Shown one piece after another: positions 6,306 through 9,543 of a DNA stretch of 21,794 bases (position 1 is its first letter; each line of letters starts with the position of its first letter). Made by a program: the position numbers and the translations under genes. The notes under the pieces were generated by a model. It had not been told where the DNA came from, made no database searches, and saw nothing but the letters and a program-made list of their open reading frames with translations. Source of the stretch: a virus (Duplodnaviria > Heunggongvirae > Uroviricota > Caudoviricetes); IMG/VR virus record IMGVR_UViG_2737471841_000006, positions 1 to 21,794 of that record; one strand, 5' to 3'.

Positions 6306-6744
6306 AATCATCTCCATTTTTTCAAATGAACTTTGTTGATGCGGTGCCTAGTGCCTCCAGGTGATGTTAACCAGTTAACAATTAACACCGGATACAAATA
6401 CCCCCCCAAACTAATATAGAGTTTTTTAACTGTTCCGCGTGCGCTTAGCCGCATTCACCGCATCACAAAATTCACTTTAAAAAGGGCGGACATCAGTCGA
6501 ACTTCAAGAAAAAACCGATGCCGCCAAAGACTACACACAGCAATGTCGTTATTCACAACCGGAGGCGCACTCCCACCATTTATATTTAACAGACAAGACC
6601 GACTCTTTATTGATACCGGAAATGCGCCTTCGTGTTGTGCCCGGTTTTATTTCACCACCTCCGGGCTTCGGTGGTCTCGGCTATACCCCTACAGCGAGAG
6701 CTTGTGTTAACATTTCAATACCCTTACAGTCGAGAGTTATTGAA

Positions 6745-7234
6745 ATGTTGGATGTATTTACTCCATTGTTGAAACTTTTTGCTAAAGAGCCACATCGAAA
6801 GACTTATGTACACGATTATCATTTTTGGCCTCACTCTCTGGCTGATACCGAAAGAGTTTGCTGTCGTATTTAATGCTTATACTGAAATAACCTGGCTCTT
6901 TCAGATTATAGTTTTTGCCTTTTCTTTCGTGGTTGCCATTTCCTTCTCAAGATTGCGAGCACATATTCAAAAACATTATTCATTGCTACCAGAGCAACGA
7001 GTATTGCTTCGTTTATCTGAGAAAGAAATCGCTGTATTTAAAGATTTCCTTAAAACAGGAAATCTTATTATCACTTCTCCTTGCCGTAACCCGGTTATGA
7101 AAAAATTAGAACGGAAGGGCATCATTCAACATCAGAGTGATGGCGCAAACTGTTCTTATTATCTCGTCACCGAAAAATACTCCCACTTTATGAAGTTATT
7201 CTGGAACAGTAGGAGCAGACGTTTTAATCGTTAG
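6745..7234 (+). pseudogene. sieB: Superinfection exclusion protein B (sieB), reading frame broken by an apparent 1-nt insertion near 6792-6796
   Basis: MLDVFTPLLKLFAKEP (frame of ATG 6745) switches frame and continues as ..IERLMYTIIIFGLTLWLIPKEF..SRSRRFNR in the 6779..7234 ORF. 16 + 1 + 145 residues gives 162 aa, the intact SieB length. First in-frame ATG after the shift is at 6806. Confidence 0.6.
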
Positions 7235-8468: not shown

Positions 8469-8597
8469 ATGTTTAAATCAGACGTAATTAATTATTACGG
8501 CACGAAAGCCAAAGTGGCGAAAGCTGCTGGCGTTGATCCATCTGCTGTTTCTCAATGGGGGGAAGCCGCAAACGATCGTCGGTTTCAAAATTGGTAA
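8469..8597 (+). pseudogene. ydaS: Cro-like HTH protein stub (YdaS-like), 42 aa; probably truncated at a deletion junction
   Basis: Hand translation gives MFKSDVINYYGTKAKVAKAAGVDPSAVSQWGEAANDRRFQNW then stop; not in the track (<60 aa). Good GGAGG Shine-Dalgarno. Only the HTH portion is present, a G6 run sits at 8557-8562, and a terminase frame takes over immediately. Confidence 0.5.
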
Positions 8598-9543
8598 TGC
8601 GCTGGTGGATGAACTGGACATTTTGCCGAAGGAAAAAGCCAGAACTGCGTGGCGCAAGATAATTGCGCGTATGCGTTATAAGGTTGATGGACTTCGCAAC
8701 GGTATTGACGTTACAACCACGCCAGAAGGATTCAAATTTGTCTACGAGCAGTTTGTTAAAGCCGTGCGTGAAAAAACAGAGTTGTCCTCACTGTATGGTC
8801 TGGTGCAGGCATCTACTTTCGATAATGAAAAGAACCTGCCAGCAGATTACATTCCTTCGCTTCTTGAATCATACCCTCCAGAGCTGATTAAAGCCTATCT
8901 TCGTGGACAGTTTACGAACCTGACAAGTGGTACTGTTTACCATCAGTTTGACCGGCAACTGAATAATTGCGAAGAAGTGGAGCAGCCTGGGGAGCCGATT
9001 TATATCGGGATGGATTTTAACGTTGGAAAGATGGCGGGGATCGTCCATGTGCTGCGTTTGGGTCTTCCATGTGCGGTAACTGAAATCATCAATGCCTACG
9101 ATACGCCGGATATGATCCGTATCATTAAAGAACGCTTCTGGCTGTATGACGGAAATGATTACCGGAAGGTGAGAGAAATTTATATTTATCCTGATGCCTC
9201 CGGGGATTCCCGAAAATCAAATAATGCAAGTGCGACGGATATTGCTCAGCTTAAACAGGCCGGTTTTAACGTTGTGGTGAACAGTTCGAACCCGCCAGTA
9301 AAAGATCGCGTTAACTCAATGAATGCAATGTTCTGCAATGCCAATGGCGAGCGTCGCTATAAAGTTAATGTGAAGCGTTGTCCGGTATATGCCGAATCTC
9401 TGGAGCAACAGGTCTGGGATGATAAGGGGGAGCCTGATAAAAAATCTGGCAACGATCACCCGAATGATGCAGGAGGTTATTTCATCGTTAAACAATTCCC
9501 TATTGTCAAACCGACCGGAAGAGTCACATCACTTCGGATTTAA
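8533..9543 (+). pseudogene. Terminase large subunit, N-terminally truncated fragment (Walker B-like segment plus complete nuclease domain; no Walker A)
   Basis: 336-aa frame with ALVDELD (Walker B-like) and nuclease-domain acidic motifs IYIGMDFNVG, IYPDASGD and GNDHPNDAGGY. No GxxxxGK(S/T) P-loop anywhere. Frame is open from 8488 with only a TTG at 8533. Sits directly after the cro-like stub, where replication and lysis genes would be expected. Confidence 0.6.

Follow-up and report, generated by a model that had tools for sequence, protein, structure and literature searches.

The locus discussed here raises the question of whether a superinfection exclusion gene that appears to be broken by a single nucleotide is really broken and, if so, what it may still produce. 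The gene is sieB, found in a Rac-type prophage on the plus strand of the window, by which we mean the whole stretch of 21,794 nucleotides that was analysed (positions 1 to 21,794 of the IMG/VR virus record IMGVR_UViG_2737471841_000006, Caudoviricetes). In phage P22, SieB is a protein that aborts the growth of superinfecting phage; according to reviews, P22 bypasses this exclusion with a product called Esc, with an antisense RNA, sas, switching translation from SieB to Esc. We propose that the window carries a recurrent loss-of-function allele of full-length SieB which may still make an Esc-like protein, and we give this reading a probability of roughly 0.8. The features on which the argument is built are as follows.

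6745 to 7234, plus strand: Rac-type sieB, frameshifted, a pseudogene as far as full-length SieB is concerned (Pfam PF14163; 100% identity to an intact 162-residue allele apart from one inserted base; 'sieB, frameshifted' in RefSeq).
6794, plus strand: the extra base of codon 17, an A (CCAC[A]TCG), which is the only indel with respect to intact alleles and is found on at least three gene backbones.
6745 to 6873, plus strand: residual upstream frame, consisting of 16 native SieB codons and 26 out-of-frame codons, with a TAA stop at 6871-6873 (translation MLDVFTPLLKLFAKEPHRKTYV...).
6806 to 7234, plus strand: 142 uninterrupted codons beginning at Met21, which correspond in position to P22 esc (Pfam SieB; P22 esc annotation and alignments).

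The nature of the lesion is clear from an alignment with the intact 162-residue allele of strain STEC308, in which the extra A at 6794 is the sole difference over 181 nt. It falls inside codon 17 (CTC becomes CATC), at a site that is not a homopolymer, and both the 16 residues that precede it and the 145 that follow it are the same as in the STEC308 allele. The frame that opens at ATG 6745-6747 reads MLDVFTPLLKLFAKEP, continues out of frame as HRKTYV... and ends after 42 residues, while the rest of the protein lies in the adjacent frame, which runs without a stop from TTG 6779 or ATG 6806 to the TAG at 7232-7234 (151 or 142 residues, respectively). With the +1 shift and the stop at 6871-6873, no uninterrupted full-length frame starts from the SieB start codon in the window. 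A first-pass annotation of this DNA, made from the letters alone, had proposed a single-base insertion at sieB codon 17; the alignment bears this out, and the coordinates given at the time (start at 6745, lesion in the 'cacatcg' of 6791-6797, internal ATG at 6806) are exact.

The same annotation had considered that the extra base could be a sequencing error. This is refuted by the number of independent assemblies that carry it. An exact 61-mer across the insertion site is present in 16 of 5,426 complete E. coli genomes, and four further complete genomes contain the 61-mer with one substitution and the same length (20 of 5,426 in total); a second search with a different query returns the same 20. 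These genomes come from different hosts and countries and represent several haplotypes, including derived alleles with secondary changes. All five carrier records whose annotation was inspected bear the RefSeq label 'frameshifted', which reads 'frameshifted; internal stop' in the case of strain 442/2. The exact 142-residue product from ATG 6806 is found on 400 public contigs (483 index blocks), a count that is inflated by gene calling, including the choice of start site on intact genes (some pipelines call the 142-residue frame even where the upstream 20 codons are intact, as in L028), and the otherwise identical intact 162-residue protein on 304. The insertion was present in nine of the nine contigs retrieved via the 142-residue product, and one of them, CP057470.1, matches the window without a single difference along 989 nt. 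RefSeq pseudogenes labelled 'sieB, frameshifted', such as BWI90_RS07600 of strain 13P484A, have the same gene sequence as the window, insertion included; 13P484A differs from the window by two substitutions about 130 nt upstream of the ATG and by nothing at the lesion. An error confined to the window, in favour of which one can cite only how often single-base indels arise as errors in general, can practically be dismissed when the context is not homopolymeric and the same allele occurs in 20 complete genomes and hundreds of contigs, on several haplotypes. Since the site is not a homopolymer and the identical allele is present in 20 independent complete genomes and in all nine further assemblies, the frameshift is a genuine heritable allele, which RefSeq already flags as a pseudogene. 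The two-frame arrangement, common as it is in one sub-lineage, is not the conserved state of the family. It is important to note that public annotations of this DNA disagree, calling it either a frameshifted pseudogene (RefSeq, with the Prokaryotic Genome Annotation Pipeline, PGAP) or an intact 142-residue 'superinfection exclusion B family protein'.

Whether the insertion matters depends on where the protein starts. That the gene belongs to the SieB family is not in doubt: the Pfam model PF14163 scores 104 bits (cut-off 26) and is covered from position 1 to 142 of 147, and NCBIfam and PADLOC contain no matching SieB model. The hydropathy of the window protein peaks near residues 32 and 57, and the AlphaFold model of a 75%-identical homologue (P0004; predicted local distance difference test score, pLDDT, of 86) has helices at 17-33 and 51-78 followed by a winged-helix-like domain, so that hydropathy and homologue model together give the arrangement typical of the family, two N-terminal hydrophobic helices and then a cytoplasmic domain. 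The gene order kilR (-), sieB (+), ydaF (-), repressor (-) is that of lambda and P22, with sieB opposite to the early-left operon.

It has some appeal to place the true start of Rac-type sieB at ATG 6806, in which case the insertion would lie in a 5' leader and the gene would be intact: the Pfam model begins exactly at Met21, and several pipelines choose the 142-residue frame on intact genes. We consider this very unlikely. The 20 codons that precede Met21 are kept as protein in Citrobacter and Yersinia homologues and in representatives down to about 22% identity, lambda included; the N-terminal consensus of the family is LFxNEPLERLMY, and lambda SieB has F-S-N-EPLER-T-MY. The curated P22 record has the sieB coding sequence (CDS) beginning at the homologous upstream ATG, and the alignment with the P22 promoter places the start of the transcript 25 nt upstream of ATG 6745. 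Judging from the sequence, full-length SieB is destroyed by the insertion, because the conserved 20 codons, the start of the P22 CDS and the promoter alignment all identify ATG 6745 as the true start of SieB.

A close reference for this allele is the sieB gene of the K-12 Rac prophage (SIEB_ECOLI, 162 residues), which has the same prophage type, locus and flanking genes (kilR and ydaF) as the window. The two genes differ at 18 positions over the 514-nt gene region (96.5% identity), and the K-12 allele is intact. Lambda SieB (NP_597779), also intact, is 26% identical to the window protein over 110 residues, shares with it the NEPLER-MY motif and the internal Met, and is encoded next to N, which is the same position as that of the window gene. 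As a side remark, the RefSeq CDS of lambda sieB (L003, NC_001416, 34482-35036) starts at a TTG five codons upstream of ATG 34497; this annotated start is probably too long, because it is ATG 34497 that aligns with the Rac-type start, both in DNA and in protein.

The sieB/esc/sas system of P22, reportedly described by Ranade and Poteete in 1993, is another to which the organisation of the window can be compared. The P22 gene (NC_002371) belongs to the same Pfam family as the window gene and is found in the same place, flanked on one side by kil and on the other by the N analogue and the repressor, where it likewise runs opposite to the early-left operon; the proteins are only 19% identical. In each of them the first membrane helix is directly preceded by an in-frame internal Met, at codon 25 in P22 and codon 21 in the window. 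The difference is that in the window the N-terminal segment specific to SieB is frameshifted, so that at most the short form could be made. Two further features of the window are defined by homology with the P22 system.

6682 to 6720, plus strand: region homologous to the mapped P22 sieB promoter, putatively comprising a -35-like TATACC (6682-6687), a TG-extended -10-like GTTAAC (6706-6711) and A6720, the equivalent of the P22 RNA start (alignment to P22 and lambda, and features of the P22 record).
6623 to 6749, minus strand: putative antisense RNA, homologous to P22 sas, which would span the promoter, the 5' leader and the start codon of sieB and leave ATG 6806 uncovered (sequence homology).

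A6720 precedes ATG 6745 by 25 nt. A consensus scan finds no strong sigma-70 site at 6682-6720. Reverse-complemented, the P22 sas read sequence (PMC13397905, Table 2) gives the promoter, leader and start of P22 sieB, the region that aligns at 6623-6749, and this non-coding block is better conserved among Rac-type prophages, P22 and lambda than the coding sequence. Rfam gives no match to a sas family in the window, and the consensus structure of the sas region, based on four sequences, contains too little covariation to be informative. From these alignments, all the recognisable parts of the P22-type switch appear to be present, and only the coding segment specific to SieB to be broken. We also observe a direct repeat in this region, CCCCTACAGCGAGAG and CCCTTACAGTCGAGAG (6686-6700 and 6721-6736), one copy of which lies in the promoter spacer and the other where the sieB leader begins. 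P22 and lambda have kept the two copies; the repeat could be a promoter element, a site of pairing with sas or a protein site.

The internal ATG had been compared with the Esc start in the first-pass annotation, and this parallel stands, except for its attribution to lambda, which is imprecise: the experiments were made in P22, to which the reviews credit the switch, and Esc of lambda figures only in a curated interaction table, with the same pair of P22-era papers of 1993 as its source. In the P22 record, esc starts 72 nt (24 codons) into sieB, in frame, hence at codon 25, and the Met of P22 Esc aligns at a distance of two residues from the Rac-type Met21; each of the two immediately precedes the first hydrophobic helix. 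Across 16 diverse homologues (16-19 were compared), no more than six columns are invariant or nearly so, and Met21 occupies one of them; the two members of the family that lack it, P22 being one of them, have a Met two residues later. ATG 6806 is thus the positional counterpart of the documented P22 esc start, which lends the Esc idea positional support from sequence comparison. The inserted A sits 12 nt upstream of AUG 6806, and the predicted accessibility of the mRNA there is unchanged (0.54 vs 0.52).

The mechanism that we propose is simple. Ribosomes that start at AUG 6745 would make a 42-residue nonsense peptide, and full-length SieB would be lost, presumably together with exclusion. The insertion lies in the 20-codon N-terminal segment exclusive to full-length SieB, upstream of Met21. 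It does not affect the promoter-like region or the region homologous to sas, nor the internal AUG, the sequence context preceding this AUG, or the 142-codon frame. If internal initiation occurs as in P22, the Esc-like short form would be the sole product of the locus; the window allele may therefore yield an Esc-like 142-residue product, which might in turn have anti-SieB activity.

The allele is not the mark of a single lineage. The same insertion occurs on three sieB backbones which differ from one another at 14-21 of 514 positions, two of them being otherwise identical to intact alleles.

Window-type backbone: A (Lys14) at 6786, in 17 of the 20 complete-genome carriers.
Window-type carriers with C at 6786: RM9513, E1 and PRO_A-1462-6M-A_ESBL (the sequence of the last one was not retrieved).
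K-12-type backbone with the insertion: C at 6786, in 2 of 1,349 complete genomes and in several draft and metagenome contigs.
Third-type backbone with the insertion: T at 6786, in one IMG/VR contig.

All four combinations of the state of 6786 (A or C) and of 6794 (insertion or none) exist, only 8 nt apart. As far as the sequences tell, the presence of the insertion on different backbones implies either independent recurrence or conversion patches shorter than about 25-67 nt, and the combinations at 6786 and 6794, with the T of the third backbone, call for recurrent mutation, reversion or very short conversion tracts.

The frequency of the insertion relative to other lesions was estimated from samples that are independent of the position of the lesion, obtained with anchored patterns that span the whole gene and include a middle anchor; the scan was repeated with another middle anchor, since the first one overlapped a T-run hotspot. 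IMG/VR contains three lesions in 121 loci, all of which are the insertion of A at 6794. In metagenomes, 3 of 40 loci are lesioned: one is on the same contig as an IMG/VR locus with the insertion, one has lost a base in the T run of codons 10-11 (L239), and the last (L254), at low coverage, was judged unreliable. No lesion is present in codons 21-162 of these 121 IMG/VR and 40 metagenome loci. The four distinct reliable lesioned loci are thus all in the first 60 of 489 nt, which would occur by chance with a probability of about 2e-4 if they were independent, the statistic having been picked post hoc. On the K-12 backbone, other N-terminal lesions also leave the 142-residue frame exact (ATG to ACG, +1 in the T run, loss of a C in codon 16).

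The Esc part is not free of lesions. A 101-residue 'SieB family protein', called from a GTG start and present on 52 contigs, results from at least four different indels; these are small, independent of one another and located at two T5 runs and an adjacent GCC (L268-L271, K-12-type; window 6822-6826 and 6912-6919). Five of the six homopolymer runs of at least five bases lie in this part of sieB. A query for a homopolymer lesion in T6 matched none of the complete genomes, and the companion A7 query was masked as low-complexity. As to the origin of the insertion, no stretch of at least 6 nt that could have served as its template, be it direct or inverted, lies within about 200 nt. A quasi-palindromic template was considered and dropped, only a 5-nt complement (GATGT/ACATC) being present.

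One allele repairs the damage. In E. coli QML220601 (L019, NZ_CP132063.1), the commonest backbone with the insertion has also lost A6802, which restores the 162-residue frame and changes Leu-Glu-Arg to His-Arg-Lys in the conserved EPLER motif; RefSeq treats it as an intact sieB, and the protein is found on 62 contigs.

The prophage around the gene is itself damaged. The early-left region of the window reads kilR-like (-), sieB (+), ydaF/DUF1391 (-), an unnamed open reading frame (ORF) (-), a Cro/CI-type helix-turn-helix repressor (-) and a truncated Cro-like gene (+). Related Rac-type prophages match the window as far as 8564; beyond the junction at 8564/8565, the window resumes well inside a large-terminase gene: the Cro-like ORF (8469-8597) keeps 32 of 60 model positions, and the terminase ORF (8533-9543) covers positions 87-213 only of Terminase_6N. 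This deletion from cro to terminase, which is absent from 13P484A, has removed the replication, regulatory and late-regulation, lysis and small-terminase regions, and the prophage is defective because these are gone. Elsewhere in the window, a full-length match to RalA (Rfam RF02694; 218 bits, gathering score 170) lies at 1557-1735 on the plus strand; RalA is the antitoxin small RNA of the RalR/RalA pair of Rac and adjoins the integrase end of the prophage.

How should this recurrence be understood? Because the window prophage is already defective, the simplest view is that the insertion is one of several decay lesions, though an unusually recurrent one. What is unexpected is that the identical insertion occurs on unrelated backbones, is the main lesion in unbiased samples and has been compensated once. 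It may be tempting to see here an allele under selection, in which the short form neutralises the SieB of other prophages or has a function of its own, so that N-terminal lesions recur. Such a view would be consistent with the same insertion on at least three backbones, with the location in codons 1-17 of all the lesions from position-unbiased samples (three of three in IMG/VR), with the exact conservation of the 142-residue frame by the other N-terminal lesions, and with the distribution of homopolymers, which, being mostly in the Esc part, makes mutation bias alone predict no N-terminal excess. However, the Esc part has its own lesions (the four or more indels on 52 contigs), the counts of 142-residue products are inflated by gene callers, no signal of purifying selection is detected after the frameshift and one lineage has acquired a stop, the compensating deletion restores the long form, and exactly the same mutation having arisen on three occasions speaks for a hotspot and not for selection on a broad target. 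On balance we consider selection for the short form unlikely. The same holds for its most specific version, in which populations would repeatedly lose only the N-terminal leader of SieB since the Esc-like form disarms SieB-type abortive infection of co-resident or incoming lambdoid phages; this is doubtful, and if it were true, the deletion of A6802 would represent selection swinging back to the long form. Even less probable, to a degree that makes us set it aside, is that the site is a reversible on/off switch (a contingency locus), or that +1 recoding gives the full-length protein. Intact and inserted alleles do exist on identical backbones, as do all four combinations of 6786 and 6794 and a nearby compensating deletion, but the site has neither a repeat tract nor the template mentioned above, no slippery or stimulatory motif is evident on reading the sequence, and nine other conceivable compensated proteins are absent from a collection of 15 billion protein sequences. 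On present evidence, a mutational hotspot and ordinary prophage decay explain the allele adequately.

Several points weigh against our proposal of a SieB loss-of-function allele that may keep an Esc-like product. As read from the sequence, ATG 6806 is preceded only by GAAAGA, which is not a clear Shine-Dalgarno sequence. In the literature searched, we found nothing relevant about exclusion by Rac-type SieB, nor about other functions, internal starts or the pseudogene status of Rac-type sieB. The changes that have occurred in the 142-codon frame after the frameshift are 0 synonymous and 4 non-synonymous, one of which is a stop (W30* and Y58C in 442/2, T90A in RM9513, N86G and T90A in E1), small numbers to be compared to 13 synonymous and 4 non-synonymous changes between two intact alleles, another intact allele (E21845) giving 0 to 2; this suggests relaxed constraint on the 142-codon frame, in a comparison that is confounded by recent polymorphism being set against older divergence. 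Last, the deletion of A6802 hints, weakly, that selection favours the full-length protein and not the short form.

If the insertion is mere decay, it still reveals an inconsistency of annotation, the same gene being called either a pseudogene or an intact 142-residue 'SieB family protein'. SieB was one of the first abortive-infection functions of prophages to become known. The allele described here occurs naturally, its predicted genotype being SieB-minus with the Esc frame kept, and together with its intact sister and the revertant in which LER is replaced by HRK, it forms a ready-made allelic series for the 20-residue N-terminus and for internal initiation in this family.
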